Shown here one piece after another: positions 1 through 4,824 of a DNA stretch of 4,824 nt. The translations under genes and the position numbers were made by a program. The DNA lies in IMG/VR virus record IMGVR_UViG_2534682256_000009, one strand, 5' to 3'. Numbering within the stretch: the stretch's first letter is position 1; each line of letters starts with the position of its first letter. Below the pieces are notes generated by a model. That model ran no database searches and had not been told where the DNA came from. It saw only the letters and a list, made by a program, of their open reading frames with translations. The DNA is from a virus (taxonomy: Duplodnaviria > Heunggongvirae > Uroviricota > Caudoviricetes).

Positions 1-215
1 AACGTGACGGACGTAACCACCGCGACATGTGCGTGCTGTTCCGCTGGGCATGCCAGGACAACTTCTGGTCCGGTAACGTGCTAAGTCCGGCCAAACTCCG
101 CGACAAGTGGACCCAGCTCGAAATCAACCGTAACAAGCAACAGGCAGGCATGATAGCCAGCAAACCAAAACTCGACCTGACAAACACTGACTGGATTTAC
201 GGGGTGGATTTATGA
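1..215 (+). CDS. O: Lambda-type replication initiator protein O, C-terminal fragment (5' end lies upstream of the window; first complete in-frame codon starts at nt 3)
   Basis: Frame is open from the window edge (no stop between nt 3 and the TGA at 213-215). The C-terminal peptide ...KPKLDLTNTDWIYGVDL matches my recollection of the lambda O C-terminus. The stop overlaps the next ATG in an ATGA arrangement, as in lambda O/P. Sampled 60-bp window 1-60 is about 62% GC. Confidence 0.82.
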   Translation, partial: RDGRNHRDMCVLFRWACQDNFWSGNVLSPAKLRDKWTQLEINRNKQQAGMIASKPKLDLTNTDWIYGVDL

Positions 216-913
216 AAAACATCGCCGCACAGATGGTTAACTTTGACCGTGAGCAGATGCGTCGGATCGCCAACAACATGCCGGAACAGTACGACGAAAA
301 GCCGCAGGTACAGCAGGTAGCGCAGATCATCAACGGTGTGTTCAGCCAGTTACTGGCAACTTTCCCGGCGAGTCTGGCTAACCGTGACCAGAACGAACTG
401 AACGAAATCCGCCGCCAGTGGGTTCTGGCTTTCCGGGAAAACGGGATCACCACAATGGAACAGGTTAACGCAGGAATGCGCGTAGCCCGTCGGCAGAATC
501 GACCATTTCTGCCATCACCCGGGCAGTTTGTTGCATGGTGCCGGGAAGAAGCATCCGTTATCGCCGGACTGCCAAACGTCAGCGAGCTGGTTGATATGGT
601 TTACGAGTATTGCCGGAAGCGTGGCCTGTATCCGGATGCAGAGTCTTATCCGTGGAAATCGAACGCGCATTACTGGTTGGTTACCAACTTGTACCAGAAC
701 ATGCGGGCCAATGCGCTGACTGACGCGGAATTACGGCGCAAGGCTGCCGATGAACTGACCTGTATGACAGCGCGAATTAACCGTGGTGAGACGATACCTG
801 AACCAGTAAAACAACTTCCTGTTATGGGCGGTAGACCTCTAAATCGTGCACAGGCTCTGGCGAAGATCGCAGAAATTAAAGCTAAGTTCGGACTGAAAGG
901 AGCAAGTGTATGA
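212..913 (+). CDS. P: Lambda-type replication protein P (DnaB helicase loader), full length 233 aa
   Basis: 233-aa ORF beginning MKNIAAQMVNFDREQMRRIANNMPEQYDEKPQVQQVAQIINGVF, recognised as lambda P by sequence recollection, and the length matches lambda P. ATGA overlap with O upstream and with ren downstream; GGGGTGG-like SD upstream. Confidence 0.9.
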   Translation: MKNIAAQMVNFDREQMRRIANNMPEQYDEKPQVQQVAQIINGVFSQLLATFPASLANRDQNELNEIRRQWVLAFRENGITTMEQVNAGMRVARRQNRPFLPSPGQFVAWCREEASVIAGLPNVSELVDMVYEYCRKRGLYPDAESYPWKSNAHYWLVTNLYQNMRANALTDAELRRKAADELTCMTARINRGETIPEPVKQLPVMGGRPLNRAQALAKIAEIKAKFGLKGASV

Positions 914-1212
914 CGGGCAAAGAGGCAATTATTCATTACCTGGGGACGCATAAGAGCTTCTGTGCACAGGACGTTGCCGCGGTAACAGGTGCAACCGTAA
1001 CCAGCATAAATCAGGCTGCGGCTAAAATGGCGCGGGCAGGAATCCTGGTCGTTGATGGTAAGGTCTGGCGAACGGTGTATTACCGGTTCGCTACCAGAGA
1101 AGAACGGGAAGGAAAGGTGAGCACGAATCTGATTTTTAAGGAGTGTCGCCAGAGTGCCGCGATGAAACGGGTATTGAGGGTATATAAAAGAACATCAATG
1201 GGTACACAATGA
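910..1212 (+). CDS. ren: Ren-like protein (lambda ren homologue), 100 aa; extreme C-terminus may be altered by the downstream insertion
   Basis: ORF starts MTGKEAIIHYLGTH...VTSINQAAAKMARAG...VWRTVYYRFATREEREGK, recognised as lambda Ren. ATGA overlap with the P stop (910-913) and an AAGGAG SD upstream. Lambda ren is 96 aa by my recollection, whereas this ORF is 100 aa and ends where composition shifts. Confidence 0.8.
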   Translation: MTGKEAIIHYLGTHKSFCAQDVAAVTGATVTSINQAAAKMARAGILVVDGKVWRTVYYRFATREEREGKVSTNLIFKECRQSAAMKRVLRVYKRTSMGTQ

Positions 1213-1229
1213 TGAAACAGGTGAGTTGA

Positions 1230-1264
1230 GTTCAAACTGTAGTACAATTCTCTCCAGTTTGAAC
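1230..1264. repeat. Perfect 10-bp inverted repeat GTTCAAACTG-N15-CAGTTTGAAC at the left composition junction, 16 bp upstream of the emrE start
   Basis: Read directly: gttcaaactg (1230-1239) and its exact reverse complement cagtttgaac (1255-1264), separated by a 15-nt spacer tagtacaattctctc that contains a TACAAT hexamer (1243-1248). Confidence 0.7.
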
Positions 1265-1279
1265 AGGAAAGAATATGTT

Positions 1280-1612
1280 ATGAACCCTTATATTTATCTT
1301 GGTGGTGCAATACTTGCAGAGGTCATTGGTACAACCTTAATGAAGTTTTCAGAAGGTTTTACACGGTTATGGCCATCTGTTGGTACAATTATTTGTTATT
1401 GTGCATCATTCTGGTTATTAGCTCAGACGCTGGCTTATATTCCTACAGGGATTGCTTATGCTATCTGGTCAGGAGTCGGTATTGTCCTGATTAGCTTACT
1501 ATCATGGGGGTTTTTCGGCCAACGGCTGGACCTGCCAGCCGTTATAGGCATGATGTTGATTTGTGCCGGTGTGTTGGTTATTAATTTATTGTCACGAAGC
1601 ACACCACATTAA
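1280..1612 (+). CDS. emrE: EmrE, small multidrug resistance (SMR) family efflux transporter, 110 aa
   Basis: Translation from ATG 1280 is MNPYIYLGGAILAEVIGTTLMKFSEGFTRLWPSVGTIICYCASFWLLAQTLAYIPTGIAYAIWSGVGIVLISLLSWGFFGQRLDLPAVIGMMLICAGVLVINLLSRSTPH, recognised as E. coli EmrE with the membrane-embedded Glu in the first helix. AGGA SD about 10 nt upstream. The longer 128-aa ORF in the track starts at an upstream TTG (1226) and is not the likely start. Confidence 0.93.
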   Translation: MNPYIYLGGAILAEVIGTTLMKFSEGFTRLWPSVGTIICYCASFWLLAQTLAYIPTGIAYAIWSGVGIVLISLLSWGFFGQRLDLPAVIGMMLICAGVLVINLLSRSTPH

Positions 1613-1641
1613 AAATAATTTCTTTTAAAAGACTGCAATAT

Positions 1642-1675
1642 GGCGGTTCATATCTTTACATGGGCCGCTTTTGTT
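1642..1675 (+). terminator. Candidate intrinsic terminator downstream of emrE
   Basis: Imperfect hairpin 1642-1650 / 1661-1669 (core GCGG/CCGC plus A-U, C-G and wobble pairs, 10-nt loop) followed by TTTTGTT, about 30 nt after the emrE stop. Stability not computed. Confidence 0.4.
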
Positions 1676-1856
1676 AATGTTTTTAGTTTTTGTGTATTCT
1701 TTTGTGCCTTCAAGATTATTGCGTAAGCAAATTGCAATACGATTATTGTTGTATATTCAAGATAGTGTGATCGTAATTGTCTTTTTAAATAAAAATTAAA
1801 CAAAAATTATATCTCACCACTAAGGTTTATAAAAGCATAAGTTAGCAGGTGTCACC

Positions 1857-3383
1857 ATGAAAAAAGCCATAGCATATATGCGATTTTCATCACCAGGTCA
1901 GATGTCTGGCGACTCATTAAACCGACAGAGAAGACTTATTGCTGAATGGTTAAAGGTAAATAGTGATTATTATCTTGATACCATAACATATGAAGATTTA
2001 GGATTAAGTGCATTCAAAGGAAAGCATGCACAATCAGGAGCTTTTTCGGAATTTTTAGATGCTATAGAGCATGGTTATATATTGCCAGGAACTACATTGT
2101 TAGTTGAAAGTCTGGACAGACTTTCAAGAGAAAAAGTCGGTGAAGCGATTGAACGTCTGAAATTGATTTTGAATCACGGTATTGATGTTATAACTCTTTG
2201 CGACAATACAGTCTATAATATTGACTCTTTGAATGAGCCATATTCATTAATAAAAGCCATACTTATAGCACAAAGGGCAAATGAAGAAAGCGAGATAAAG
2301 TCAAGTCGGGTTAAATTATCATGGAAGAAAAAACGGCAGGATGCACTGGAATCAGGTACGATTATGACGGCGTCTTGTCCGAGATGGCTCTCCTTAGATG
2401 ACAAAAGAACGGCTTTTGTTCCAGACCCCGACAGGGTGAAAACTATTGAGCTAATTTTTAAACTCAGGATGGAAAGGCGCTCATTGAATGCAATAGCCAA
2501 GTATTTAAATGATCATGCTGTAAAGAATTTCTCAGGAAAAGAAAGTGCATGGGGGCCTTCTGTAATTGAAAAATTATTAGCGAATAAAGCTCTGATAGGT
2601 ATATGCGTACCTTCATATCGTGCAAGAGGGAAAGGGATAAGTGAAATCGCTGGCTATTATCCCAGAGTCATATCAGATGATTTGTTTTACGCTGTACAGG
2701 AAATTCGGTTGGCACCTTTTGGTATTAGCAATAGTAGCAAGAATCCTATGCTAATAAATCTACTTCGAACAGTTATGAAGTGTGAGGCTTGTGGTAATAC
2801 CATGATTGTTCATGCGGTATCTGGAAGTTTGCATGGCTATTATGTTTGTCCGATGAGAAGATTACATCGATGTGACAGGCCATCAATAAAGAGAGATTTG
2901 GTTGATTATAATATCATTAATGAATTGCTTTTTAATTGTAGCAAAATTCAACCAGTTGAAAACAAGAAAGATGCTAATGAAACTTTAGAGTTAAAAATTA
3001 TTGAGCTTCAGATGAAAATTAATAATTTAATCGTTGCATTGTCTGTCGCGCCTGAAGTTACCGCTATAGCAGAGAAAATAAGACTATTAGATAAGGAATT
3101 ACGAAGAGCTTTGGTATCATTGAAAACTTTGAAGAGTAAAGGTGTAAATTCATTCAGTGATTTTTATGCTATTGACTTAACCAGTAAAAATGGACGAGAG
3201 TTATGCCGTACACTTGCCTATAAAATATTCGAAAAAATCATAATTAATACGGATAATAAAACCTGTGATATCTATTTTATGAATGGCATTGTTTTTAAAC
3301 ACTATCCTTTAATGAAAGTAATATCCGCCCAGCAGGCGATAAGTGCTCTCAAATATATGGTTGATGGTGAGGTTTATTTTTGA
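1857..3383 (+). CDS. ybcK: Large serine recombinase (resolvase/invertase catalytic domain, recombinase domain, zinc ribbon, coiled coil), 508 aa; corresponds to DLP12 ybcK
   Basis: N-terminus AIAYMRFSSPGQ...SLNRQ aligns with the resolvase catalytic motif YxRVSTxxQ (putative nucleophile Ser11). ESLDRLSRE matches the conserved DRLxR motif. C-terminal half has a Cys cluster KCEACGN...YYVCPMRRLHRCD and a predicted coiled-coil stretch. AGGTG SD 5 nt before the ATG. Strongly AT-rich codon usage. Confidence 0.9.
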   Translation: MKKAIAYMRFSSPGQMSGDSLNRQRRLIAEWLKVNSDYYLDTITYEDLGLSAFKGKHAQSGAFSEFLDAIEHGYILPGTTLLVESLDRLSREKVGEAIERLKLILNHGIDVITLCDNTVYNIDSLNEPYSLIKAILIAQRANEESEIKSSRVKLSWKKKRQDALESGTIMTASCPRWLSLDDKRTAFVPDPDRVKTIELIFKLRMERRSLNAIAKYLNDHAVKNFSGKESAWGPSVIEKLLANKALIGICVPSYRARGKGISEIAGYYPRVISDDLFYAVQEIRLAPFGISNSSKNPMLINLLRTVMKCEACGNTMIVHAVSGSLHGYYVCPMRRLHRCDRPSIKRDLVDYNIINELLFNCSKIQPVENKKDANETLELKIIELQMKINNLIVALSVAPEVTAIAEKIRLLDKELRRALVSLKTLKSKGVNSFSDFYAIDLTSKNGRELCRTLAYKIFEKIIINTDNKTCDIYFMNGIVFKHYPLMKVISAQQAISALKYMVDGEVYF

Positions 3384-3736
3384 GTAATAATCACTTTTTC
3401 AACCGTGCTATGGTATGAAAGTAAAGTAACTACTATGATATTAACTATCGAGCAAGAATATCCCCAGGCACTCAACAGGGCGCAGGTCAACGTGAATCGG
3501 TCATGACACGACACCGATTTTGCGGAATCAATGTTGCTTATGAATACAACATCCCGCTTAGTACATGTTCAACACATCAGCAAATTTTGAACTGGGTGTG
3601 GCACTTAACTGAAAAAACATGGATGACACAAAATGTTACTCGTCGCTTCATTGAAGTAGCTTGTGGATATCACAAGCTAGACTATCGCCAATGATATTCA
3701 ATTTTTGATTTTTTAGTATCAACCTTCCATAATAAT

Positions 3737-3765
3737 GTCACCGGAGCTTGAACAACTCCGGTGAC
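3737..3765. repeat. Perfect 10-bp stem hairpin GTCACCGGAG-N9-CTCCGGTGAC; function unknown (RNA structure, protein-binding site or recombination site)
   Basis: Read directly: gtcaccggag (3737-3746), loop cttgaacaa, ctccggtgac (3756-3765). Followed by ttctgcgcattt, not a clean U-tract. Lies about 25 bp upstream of the ylcH-like start. Confidence 0.6.
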
Positions 3766-3789
3766 TTCTGCGCATTTAAGGGGACTTAA

Positions 3790-3888
3790 ATGCGACCACA
3801 ATCTGAACTCCTTACCTTGTCACAGATGCAGAAATGCACCTGCGATGTCTTGCATCCAGCGTTTGATCTCTGCGGAGGTGAAGCGTGA
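3790..3888 (+). CDS. ylcH: Small ORF (32 aa) translationally coupled to the downstream gene; ylcH-like
   Basis: ATG at 3790 preceded by an AAGGGGA SD. Encodes [32 protein letters not shown]. Its TGA (3886-3888) overlaps the GTG start of the next gene (GTGA). Position matches the small ylcH gene upstream of ybcN in DLP12 by recollection. Not in the supplied ORF track, presumably because of its size. Confidence 0.45.
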
Positions 3889-4340
3889 ACCTCCCACAAG
3901 ATGGCATCAAATTACATCGCGGTAACTTCACCGCTGTCGGTCAGCAGATCCAGACTTATCTGGAAGACGGCAAATGCTTTCGCATGGTGCTTAAACCGTG
4001 GCGCGAGAGACGCAGTCTTTCCCAGAATGCACTCAGCCACATGTGGTACAGCGAAATCAGTGAATACCTCATCAGCAGGGGGAAATCGTTCGCTACTTCA
4101 GCATGGGTAAAAGATGCTCTCAAACACACATACCTCGGTTATGAAACCAAGGACCTGGTTGATGTCGTAACCGGCGAAATCACTACTATCCAGTCGTTAC
4201 GCCATACCTCCGATCTTGGTACCGGAGAGATGTATGTCTTCCTGTGTAAGGTTGAAGCCTGGGCGATGAATATTGGCTGCCACCTGACTATTCCACAGAG
4301 CTGCGAGTTCCAGCTGCTGCGTGACAAGCAGGAGGCGTAA
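3885..4340 (+). CDS. ybcN: YbcN-like nin-region protein, 151 aa (DLP12 ybcN, reported as a DNA base-flipping protein)
   Basis: 151-aa ORF with GTG start and a strong GGAGGTG SD 6 nt upstream. Length and position (before ninE) match DLP12 ybcN. Stop TAA overlaps the ninE ATG (TAATG). Confidence 0.78.
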
Positions 4341-4510
4341 TGGCTACACCGCTTATTCGTGTCATGAACGGACACATCTACAAAGTACCAAATCGTCGTA
4401 AGCGTAAACCTGAGCTGAAGCCATCCGAAATACCAACACTGCTCGGATATACCGCCAGCCTGGTTGATAAAAAATGGTTGCGACTGGCAGCAAGGAGGAA
4501 TCATGGCTGA
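4340..4510 (+). CDS. ninE: NinE-like protein, 56 aa
   Basis: Translation [56 protein letters not shown], recognised as the DLP12/lambdoid NinE family. AGGAGG SD 5 nt upstream. Not in the ORF track, presumably because of its size. Confidence 0.8.
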   Translation: MATPLIRVMNGHIYKVPNRRKRKPELKPSEIPTLLGYTASLVDKKWLRLAARRNHG

Positions 4511-4824
4511 TTTGAGAAAAGCAGCGCGTAGTCGGGAATGCCAAGTAAGAATCCCTGGCGTATGTAATGGCAACCCTGAAACGTCTGTACTGGCACATAT
4601 CCGGCTGACTGGATTGTGCGGCACCGGTACCAAACCGCCAGACTTGATTGCCACCATTGCATGTTCTGCCTGCCACGACGAAATCGACCGCCGCACACAT
4701 TTTGTCGATGCTGCATATGCAAAAGAATGCGCGCTGGAAGGTATGAACCGCCCCGGGTTTCCTGGAGAGTGTTTTATCTGTGAACTCAGGCTGCCAGATC
4801 ATCGTTTCCGATGGAAGCATAATA
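4503..4824 (+). CDS. ybcO: YbcO-like Cys/His-rich protein (DUF1364-type putative zinc-binding nuclease), 5' partial: open to the window end with no stop in 107 codons
   Basis: ATG 4503 with AGGAGG SD 4 nt upstream, overlapping the ninE stop by 8 nt. Translation MADLRKAARSRECQVRIPGVCNGNPETSVLAHIRLTGLCGTGTKPPDLIATIACSACHDEIDRRTHFVDAAYAKECALEGM... matches the YbcO family by recollection. Frame stays open to nt 4824. Confidence 0.7.
   Translation, partial: MADLRKAARSRECQVRIPGVCNGNPETSVLAHIRLTGLCGTGTKPPDLIATIACSACHDEIDRRTHFVDAAYAKECALEGMNRPGFPGECFICELRLPDHRFRWKHN

Follow-up and report, generated by a model that had tools for sequence, protein, structure and literature searches.

The emrE-ylcJ-ybcK block of DLP12-type prophages: a low-GC gene cluster probably assembled by lambdoid mosaic recombination

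The low-GC block and its slot between ren and ybcN

A stretch of 4,824 nucleotides from a caudoviricete virus (IMG/VR record IMGVR_UViG_2534682256_000009), called the window below, was analyzed with respect to a low-GC block between the phage genes ren and ybcN. This block carries emrE, encoding a drug-efflux protein, the small open reading frame (ORF) ylcJ, and ybcK, the gene of a large serine recombinase (LSR; Table 1). The window is 100% identical to Escherichia coli O157:H7 chromosomes, in which the prophage adjoins icd and has its own tyrosine integrase and excisionase. The element hosting the block is a lambdoid prophage of the DLP12/Bievrevirus type. In a first-pass annotation, emrE and ybcK had been interpreted as one cargo module, delivered by the recombinase to the 3' end of ren and possibly still excisable.

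Table 1. Coordinates of features in the window and of features in compared loci. An apostrophe before P22AR marks the 5'-truncated gene.
Feature	Record	Position	Strand	Basis and remarks
lambda O-like replication initiator gene, 3' end	window	1-215	+	cut by window edge; 'replication protein' of the identical O157:H7 RefSeq record ends there
replication protein P	window	212-913	+	Pfam Phage_lambda_P, E = 9.5e-62; dN/dS 0.02-0.08 between alleles
ren (Ren-like exclusion protein)	window	910-1212	+	phrog_142, E = 6e-42
hairpin between ren and emrE, 13-bp stem	window	1230-1264	+	inverted repeat I5, 92% complementary, 9-nt loop
emrE module (coding sequence 1280-1612)	window	1203-1620	+	stretch common to the ybcK-less emrE copy; Pfam Multi_Drug_Res
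intrinsic-terminator-like hairpin and T-run directly 3' of emrE	window	1642-1669	+	10-pair stem, then TTTTGTT
ylcJ-like small ORF, 40 aa	window	1677-1799	+	Pfam YlcJ, E = 1.7e-18; RefSeq hypothetical protein, same coordinates
ybcK, large serine recombinase, 508 aa	window	1857-3383	+	Pfam PF00239, PF07508 and PF13408; phrog_95
ylcJ-ybcK unit, comparatively defined	window	1621-3449	+	right joint 3422 (vs K-12) or 3449 (vs other variants)
P22AR C-terminal-domain (antirepressor-like) gene remnant, 37 nt	window	3447-3483	+	matches interior of P22AR gene in L005, L006, L010 and L097
63-aa ORF, phage family of unknown function	window	3503-3694	+	phrog_2559, full length, E = 4.4e-51; unannotated in the identical RefSeq O157:H7 record
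conserved region upstream of ybcN	window	3704-3884	+	right-hand joint common to all slot variants; 12-pair hairpin 3737-3765
ybcN (NinB/Orf-like)	window	3885-4340	+	phrog_72, E = 5.9e-51; NCBIfam PRK09741
ninE	window	4340-4510	+	Pfam NinE, E = 4.9e-5, 23.6 bits (curated cut-off of 25 bits just missed); RefSeq annotation
ybcO (DUF1364), truncated by IS element	window	4503-4744	+	RefSeq annotation in L001; window departs from L001 at 4745
IS3-family element end (IS1203/IS629)	window	4745-4824		identical (100%) to IS1203 ends of numerous chromosomes and plasmids
281-nt non-coding piece between ybcK and ybcL	L004 (K-12)	5595-5875		13-bp perfect inverted repeat 5752-5764 / 5789-5801
38-nt direct repeat of emrE 3' end	L103 (phage 4A7)	39549-39586 and 41622-41659		second copy between 'P22AR remnant and esterase terminator
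repeat pair, DUF1367 gene 5' part	L015	7623-7851 / 10609-10831		181-229 bp, 82-86%
repeat pair, P 3' part	L033	9281-9657 / 12216-12592		377 bp, 75%
repeat pair, ORF 5' part	L034	9273-9519 / 16149-16394		248 bp, 84%
repeat pair	L024	8621-8996 / 20129-20503		376 bp, 92%, 11.5-kb spacing

The GC content is 35.6% from position 1213 to 3440, in comparison to 52.6% for O'-P-ren (1-1212) and 49.7% for ybcN-ninE-ybcO (3704-4744). When the borders found by comparison with other prophages are used, bases ~1186-3703 have 36% GC and the flanks 53% and 50%. The GC content at third codon positions is 0.35 for emrE and 0.29 for ybcK, but 0.57 for P and 0.60 for ybcN (range outside the block 0.52-0.60). Thus, the foreign composition of DNA at the ren 3' end, as described in the first-pass annotation, was confirmed, whereas the 62% GC quoted there for the O-P-ren module (53%) is reached in one 100-nt window only (21-120).

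The borders of the block, drawn initially at 1213 and 3440, had to be moved. All compared ren alleles are collinear up to ~1177-1185 and diverge beyond. The left joint therefore falls within the last ~10 codons of ren, ~30 nt left of 1213, and these codons already belong to the variable block. On the right, homology resumes at 3703-3705 in every compared prophage, with or without emrE and ybcK, and this point directly precedes the conserved hairpin upstream of ybcN. Position 3440 corresponds approximately to the right joint of the ybcK module; the low-GC slot runs on to 3703/3704, with ~320 bp of filler between ybcK and the conserved region upstream of ybcN.

Empty or otherwise filled versions of the slot, which had been proposed as something to look for, exist. 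In UM146 the slot is empty, with ninB starting 73 bp past ren. In strain 124, ren is followed by two hypothetical genes. The slot of PEC131 contains a DUF4145 gene, a theta-subunit pseudogene and one more gene, and that of EF7-18-58 a DUF6864 gene, an IS481 fragment, P22AR and one more gene. The left joint of all four with the window is at 1177-1185, and those that have ybcN share its right joint at 3703/3704. Since unrelated recombinase-free cargo, or nothing, is found at the same place, the variability of the slot does not depend on a recombinase. By these alignments, the block occupies a general accessory-gene slot of lambdoid phages: it lies between conserved phage genes, its composition deviates, and relatives carry other genes instead. 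The alignment to prophages lacking emrE and ybcK that had been called for thus placed both joints; they turned out to be general lambdoid joints, with no recognizable recombinase sites.

Separability of emrE and ylcJ-ybcK

EmrE of the window has 110 amino acids, is named EmrE in RefSeq and fits the profile of the small multidrug resistance transporters (PF00893, Multi_Drug_Res; E = 2e-35). Its occurrence was surveyed in 5,426 complete E. coli genomes. Of these, 4,301 gave a match to at least part of window 1000-2100, and a single place covering at least 80% of this segment, i.e., from the ren end through emrE into ybcK, was found in 1,393. A best match of only 90-95% identity was obtained for 2,958 records; among the matches listed in this class, 31 of 31 cover emrE alone (1203-1620) at ~91.5% identity. 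The context of such a ybcK-less copy was annotated in one genome, E. coli PK-F-10132 (L003), the others being counted by match. There, emrE is directly followed by ybcL-ybcM, between fliE and yedK. The identity to the window is 91.9% over exactly the stretch 1203-1620, and the ratio of non-synonymous to synonymous substitution rates (dN/dS) of emrE against the ybcK-less copy is 0.02-0.04.

The block of PK-F-10132 is a decayed, heavily deleted DLP12-like prophage (L003 6001-8252) that ends near yedK and keeps pieces of the ybcN upstream region, of the Q 3' end and of the nmpC upstream region. No traces of an LSR gene were found in the E. coli fliE-yedK remnant. An IS200/TnpB element adjoins yedK in this genome. 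On the left, the homology of the remnant ends at window 1203, and by coincidence the ren joint of the slot in phages is no more than ~20 nt away.

The sequences bordering emrE also recur without ybcK or in other alleles. In the alignment, the hairpin at 1230-1264, which has no Rfam family match, is conserved in the ybcK-less emrE locus; it may act on emrE expression or terminate early-operon transcription. The terminator stem at 1642-1669 is kept in the K-12 and 4A7 alleles despite base changes, one of them an A-T to C-G pair change as read by eye from the alignment. Promoter-like sites were not more numerous than in shuffled sequences. In prophage Perceval, EmrE has been described as an inducible moron, with induction in the Perceval lysogen (PMC9928086).

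A second indication of emrE in the slot before ybcK comes from phages of the esterase type, e.g., 4A7. These carry an orphan copy of the emrE 3' end and adjoining downstream sequence 283 nt past ybcK (38 nt, 84% identity, z = 10.5), which is absent from 12 other slot variants, the window and K-12 included. In the simplest reading, the repeat would have been left by an unequal crossover in which one parent carried emrE-ylcJ-ybcK-'P22AR and the other, the parent of the esterase type, had the esterase gene behind emrE and no ybcK.

By comparison, ylcJ-ybcK is a separate unit of 1.8-2.1 kb. A stretch of ~2.1 kb between emrE and ybcL of K-12 (K-12 locus 3780-5875), which holds the terminator, ylcJ and ybcK plus 281 nt more, is missing in L003; the junction lies ~8 nt past the emrE stop codon, as read partly manually from the alignment. 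YlcJ has 49 amino acids in K-12 versus 40 in the window, where a 10-nt deletion (1671-1680) takes out the K-12 start codon. Past the ybcK stop codon, the conserved unit extends for another 39 nt in K-12 and 66 nt in the other variants. The 281-nt piece of K-12 was found in 675 genomes, always in full length and once per genome; neither the ybcK-less locus nor any other ybcK variant contains it.

Beyond the conserved unit, the DNA is far less uniform. Among 80 IMG/VR loci, 13 length classes of 281-3,149 bp were observed, with ybcL-ybcM, a 5'-truncated P22AR gene plus a hypothetical gene, or an alpha/beta-hydrolase gene as contents; the window represents the shortest version. All non-K-12 variants have a 5'-truncated P22AR copy right of ybcK with the same cut point (L097 nt 3124). 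The breakpoints are nested and scattered, at 50, 66, 260-285, 326-334, 417-428 and 486 nt past the ybcK stop codon, and one of them cuts the P22AR gene at ~nt 299. As judged from the alignments, successive illegitimate deletions and replacements would give this pattern, and recombination at a single fixed position would not. Integron-like cassette capture at such a position just after ybcK was considered and rejected, since the breakpoints of the 13 variants are scattered and the right joint is common to recombinase-free phages. A pairing of LSR and alpha/beta-hydrolase genes (4A7, L026, L029) was likewise dismissed, with a sole BLASTP match between 4A7 and L029 (30% over 86 amino acids).

Recombination sites were searched for in several ways. 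For five candidate border pairs in the window and in K-12, neither inverted repeats between the inner ends nor flanking direct repeats exceeded shuffled controls. No repeats link the ren end with the region 3641-3740. The whole genome of phage 4A7 contains no long inverted or direct repeat pair other than the 38-nt emrE-end repeat. Beside the recombinase genes of 18 family members, no shared non-coding motif was found beyond close relatives. On the right of ybcK, the sequence is made up of deletion remnants and offers no recognizable partner site. Excision of the island as drawn in the window is therefore unlikely, and the suggestion that it could still occur was not upheld: gene fragments have taken the place of whatever once lay right of the ybcK unit, and no repeats resembling attachment (att) sites flank the block.

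The distribution of ybcK was also determined. Of the 5,426 genomes, 1,426 carry it, at a median of one place per genome and a maximum of two, and in 1,393 of these (~98%) it is part of a contiguous ren-emrE-ylcJ-ybcK stretch. In the 80 IMG/VR ybcK loci, emrE is on the left wherever the left flank is present, and ybcK accompanies emrE in each of the 12 phage records that contain emrE. In every annotated or scanned locus, emrE lies left of ybcK, the most divergent alleles included; P0003 (91% identity) and NCTC9100 (95%) had been candidates for another context and were both found in the usual one. No ylcJ-ybcK or emrE-ybcK at a second location, and no independent insertion, was seen among the loci annotated or scanned. 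The carrier phages integrate by their own tyrosine integrases, at argU (K-12) or icd (O157:H7, 4A7). As far as genome comparison can tell, the distribution of ybcK gives no sign of movement.

With these data, the proposal that YbcK integrated emrE and ybcK as one cargo island at the ren 3' end, perhaps still excisable, can be weighed. It would account for the abrupt GC drop at the ren end, the intact ybcK, the co-inheritance in phage records and ybcK-positive genomes, and the existence of empty and alternatively filled slots. However, ~2,900 genomes have an emrE without ybcK, as would have been the case, by the above reading, for the esterase-type parent. Moreover, the joints at 1177-1185 and 3703 are common to recombinase-free prophages, no repeats connect the two ends, the DNA from ybcK to 3703 consists of deletion remnants, and there is one insertion context only. 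Delivery of emrE by the recombinase as a single module is therefore highly improbable.

Instead, bases ~1186-3703 are probably a composite moron cluster built by ordinary lambdoid mosaic recombination, in which YbcK did not deliver emrE. The joints would be illegitimate or homeologous ones, located at or inside gene ends. Three pieces would be separable: emrE with its upstream hairpin and terminator, ylcJ-ybcK, and the filler of 'P22AR fragment and 63-aa phage ORF. In the most likely history, emrE would have been there first, and a serine-integrase gene with short flanks would have come to rest immediately behind it. This gene would be what is left of a collapsed integrated element, or two phages would have brought it there through an unequal crossover; since then it may have been co-inherited with emrE.

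Several observations weigh against this explanation. First, the att sites of LSRs are short and share little sequence, and the absence of repeats is thus a weak negative. Second, the linkage of emrE and ybcK is near-perfect in present phages, and joint movement in the past is possible. Third, K-12 compared with the fliE-yedK locus resembles a clean ~2.08-kb insertion ~8 nt past the emrE stop, as a site-specific event would give. Fourth, strong purifying selection means that YbcK does something, which mosaic recombination leaves unexplained. Fifth, the ~130 nt upstream of ybcK are ~3-4-fold less diverged than the synonymous sites of ybcK; this region could be a bound site rather than reflect only the coding constraint on ylcJ.

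YbcK, its relatives and its possible roles

The ybcK reading frame has no internal stop codon, and the encoded protein of 508 amino acids comprises the catalytic domain (PF00239, residues 4-161, E = 5e-19), the recombinase domain (PF07508, 191-284) and the zinc ribbon (PF13408, Zn_ribbon_recom, 302-357). It matches phrog_95 'integrase' with E = 7e-120. Residues R9, S11, D87, R88, R91 and E92 as well as C309, C312, C331 and C339 are invariant across 20 relatives. The AlphaFold model (predicted local distance difference test score, pLDDT, of 79) shows a long E-helix and a coiled coil at 367-427 (helices 367-397 and 401-427). A sequence search of PDB chains gave no match at E<=0.001; relatives were found by fold search. 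With Foldseek, the top matches of the model were serine-integrase/att complexes, led by 9dxd (E = 8e-19) and followed by Bxb1, PhiC31 and 4kis (full-length). Thus, the first-pass annotation was right in calling the recombinase complete, and YbcK is, as judged from sequence and predicted fold, a complete LSR of the phage-integrase type and not a relic.

Selection on ybcK was estimated from its alleles. The dN/dS of ybcK is 0.06-0.08 between allele groups at a synonymous divergence of 0.12-0.18, in comparison to 0.02-0.08 for P and 0.09-0.21 for ybcN; the 478-aa allele (L100) was left out of these values since it had been compared without alignment. Between the same alleles, the ~130 nt upstream of ybcK (ylcJ 3' part and leader) differ by ~4-5%. 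On this measure, phages keep ybcK under strong purifying selection, as tight as that on P. Infectious phages with ybcK include 4A7, 4C10, Perceval, Turner, D2, 1W, 3W and the PhiR phages, of which 4A7 has its own tyrosine Int/Xis and an icd fragment.

A Rho/NusG-dependent terminator in the K-12 ybcK leader keeps the gene silent in the lysogen (PMC4150792). In its orientation, ybcK agrees with O-P-ren-nin-Q, i.e., the early-right operon. YbcK is therefore probably made mainly at induction, when antiterminated early-right (pR) transcription reads through. The recombinase had also been rightly described as uncharacterized: no report of YbcK activity, att sites, a directionality factor or an experimental phenotype was found in the literature searched, and the only genetic test found was negative and concerned an unrelated island (PMC5426353).

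The selection on ybcK raises the possibility that YbcK was recruited for another job, either as a second integrase that inserts the entire phage at an alternative bacterial site or to act on host or rival-phage DNA at induction. Its dN/dS as low as that of P, its retention in infectious phages that already have tyrosine Int/Xis, its orientation with the early-right operon together with Rho silencing in the lysogen, and the placement of family members at prophage ends beside yedK or ssrA (see below) would fit such a role. However, among the matches listed (1,426 genomes), no module is broken at a host junction except for an IS1-associated truncation, phage 4A7 lacks a long inverted or direct repeat pair as substrate, and no experimental phenotype was found in the literature searched. 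We regard this role as improbable.

Homologues of YbcK with 38-60% identity were found across Enterobacterales. One forms the final gene of a prophage whose tail and baseplate genes are Mu-like, and lies 540 bp from the ssrA 3' end. Two relatives from two genera (about 50% identity; L019 9741-9998 and L022 9766-9998) start ~250 bp downstream of yedK orthologues, and next to one of them phage tail genes follow. The 3' ends of these yedK orthologues differ from that of E. coli yedK. Comparison of these loci points to the yedK 3' end as a possible attachment site for serine integrases; in E. coli, the emrE remnant adjoins the same gene. Other relatives follow tail-fibre genes or umuDC cargo, one is located beside a tyrosine integrase, and three (L015, L018, L033) occur in the nin region of lambdoid prophages.

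Homeologous direct repeats of 75-92% identity flank the recombinase and some cargo in four relatives (Table 1). In L015, L033 and L034, the repeat is seen as a partial copy of the neighbouring gene; the ORF concerned in L034 is presumably DUF2280-like. Site-specific insertion that supplied a substitute gene end could have left such repeats as scars, and unequal crossovers of co-linear phages account for them equally well. The recombinase module common to the relatives has borders that vary with the pair compared (upstream -68, -120 and -175 nt; downstream 0 to +66 nt), which favours mosaic joints over fixed element ends.

These relatives bear on whether ylcJ-ybcK (~2.1 kb) is itself a small serine-recombinase element that was inserted site-specifically a few bases past the emrE stop, may still move in the K-12 type and has lost its right end in the window. 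In support, the emrE-ybcL site is occupied in K-12 and empty in L003, with few or no target bases lost, and the 281-nt right-hand piece occurs only there. Relatives of 38-60% identity are placed like integrases (yedK, ssrA, tail-fibre genes), homeologous repeats flank the recombinase in L015, L033, L034 and L024, and the ybcK leader region is unusually conserved. The empty emrE/ybcL site lies in a lineage that is 8-10% diverged. On the other hand, the K-12 inner ends have no inverted repeat and no significant direct repeat, a single target context was seen across 1,426 genomes, and no non-coding motif is common to the family. Furthermore, module borders that differ between related copies fit mosaic joints better, and the repeats of the relatives and of 4A7 are equally explained by unequal crossovers. 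Such an element is possible, though unlikely. A wider version would hold that YbcK-family recombinases are integrases of small elements nested in temperate phages at phage or moron gene ends, with ylcJ-ybcK as one that is still active. It draws on the occupied/empty contrast at emrE/ybcL, the gene-end repeats, the placement at yedK and ssrA and the selection on ybcK, and we consider it distinctly doubtful.

Comparison with known systems and neighbouring sequences

The composite moron cluster resembles the lambdoid morons and nin-region slots (P-ren to ninB) in its position between conserved early genes, its lower GC content and the alternative cargo at the same joints. As in lambdoid morons, emrE has a hairpin and a putative terminator of its own, and the cargo is dispensable for lytic growth. 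In contrast, a full-length site-specific recombinase under strong selection, as present here, is atypical of a moron that benefits the host. With the integrases of phiC31, Bxb1 and Listeria A118/LI, YbcK shares the domains and a fold that matches LSR-att complexes, and its relatives are found at prophage ends; YbcK differs in that its gene lies inside the early operon and not by the phage attachment site, and in that the phages have a separate tyrosine integrase.

The staphylococcal cassette chromosome mec (SCCmec) with CcrAB is a serine-recombinase element inserted at the orfX/rlmH 3' end. Like it, ylcJ-ybcK directly follows the 3' end of an intact gene, emrE. Unlike it, ylcJ-ybcK has no flanking integration-site repeats that could be found in K-12 or the window, a single context and no sign of tandem arrays or of insertion having recurred.

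The closest counterpart is emrE-ylcJ-ybcK-ybcL-ybcM of the K-12 prophage DLP12, with the same order ren-emrE-ylcJ-ybcK and ~97% identity over window 999-3422. DLP12 is located at argU and its ren is interrupted by IS3, whereas the prophage of the window is located at icd and has intact P and ren. The window lacks ybcL-ybcM and the 281-nt piece and has the 'P22AR remnant and the 63-aa ORF instead.

If the composite reading holds, the conspicuous GC island is explained as normal lambdoid mosaicism, which corrects the idea that the neighbouring recombinase mobilizes emrE. In infectious phages, emrE would then spread with the whole phage and not as a self-mobile cassette. Apart from its origin, YbcK is a complete serine integrase present in about a quarter of complete E. 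coli genomes and in infectious gut coliphages. If its sites were found, it would provide a natural E. coli serine integrase for the toolbox, and the role of a second recombinase in a lambdoid phage would be shown.

As for the remainder of the window, no RNA element was matched in Rfam at E<=1 anywhere along it. At its right edge, next to the IS1203/IS629 end, 393 bp are missing in comparison to strain 7.1_Anguil, corresponding to the remainder of ybcO and part of rusA.

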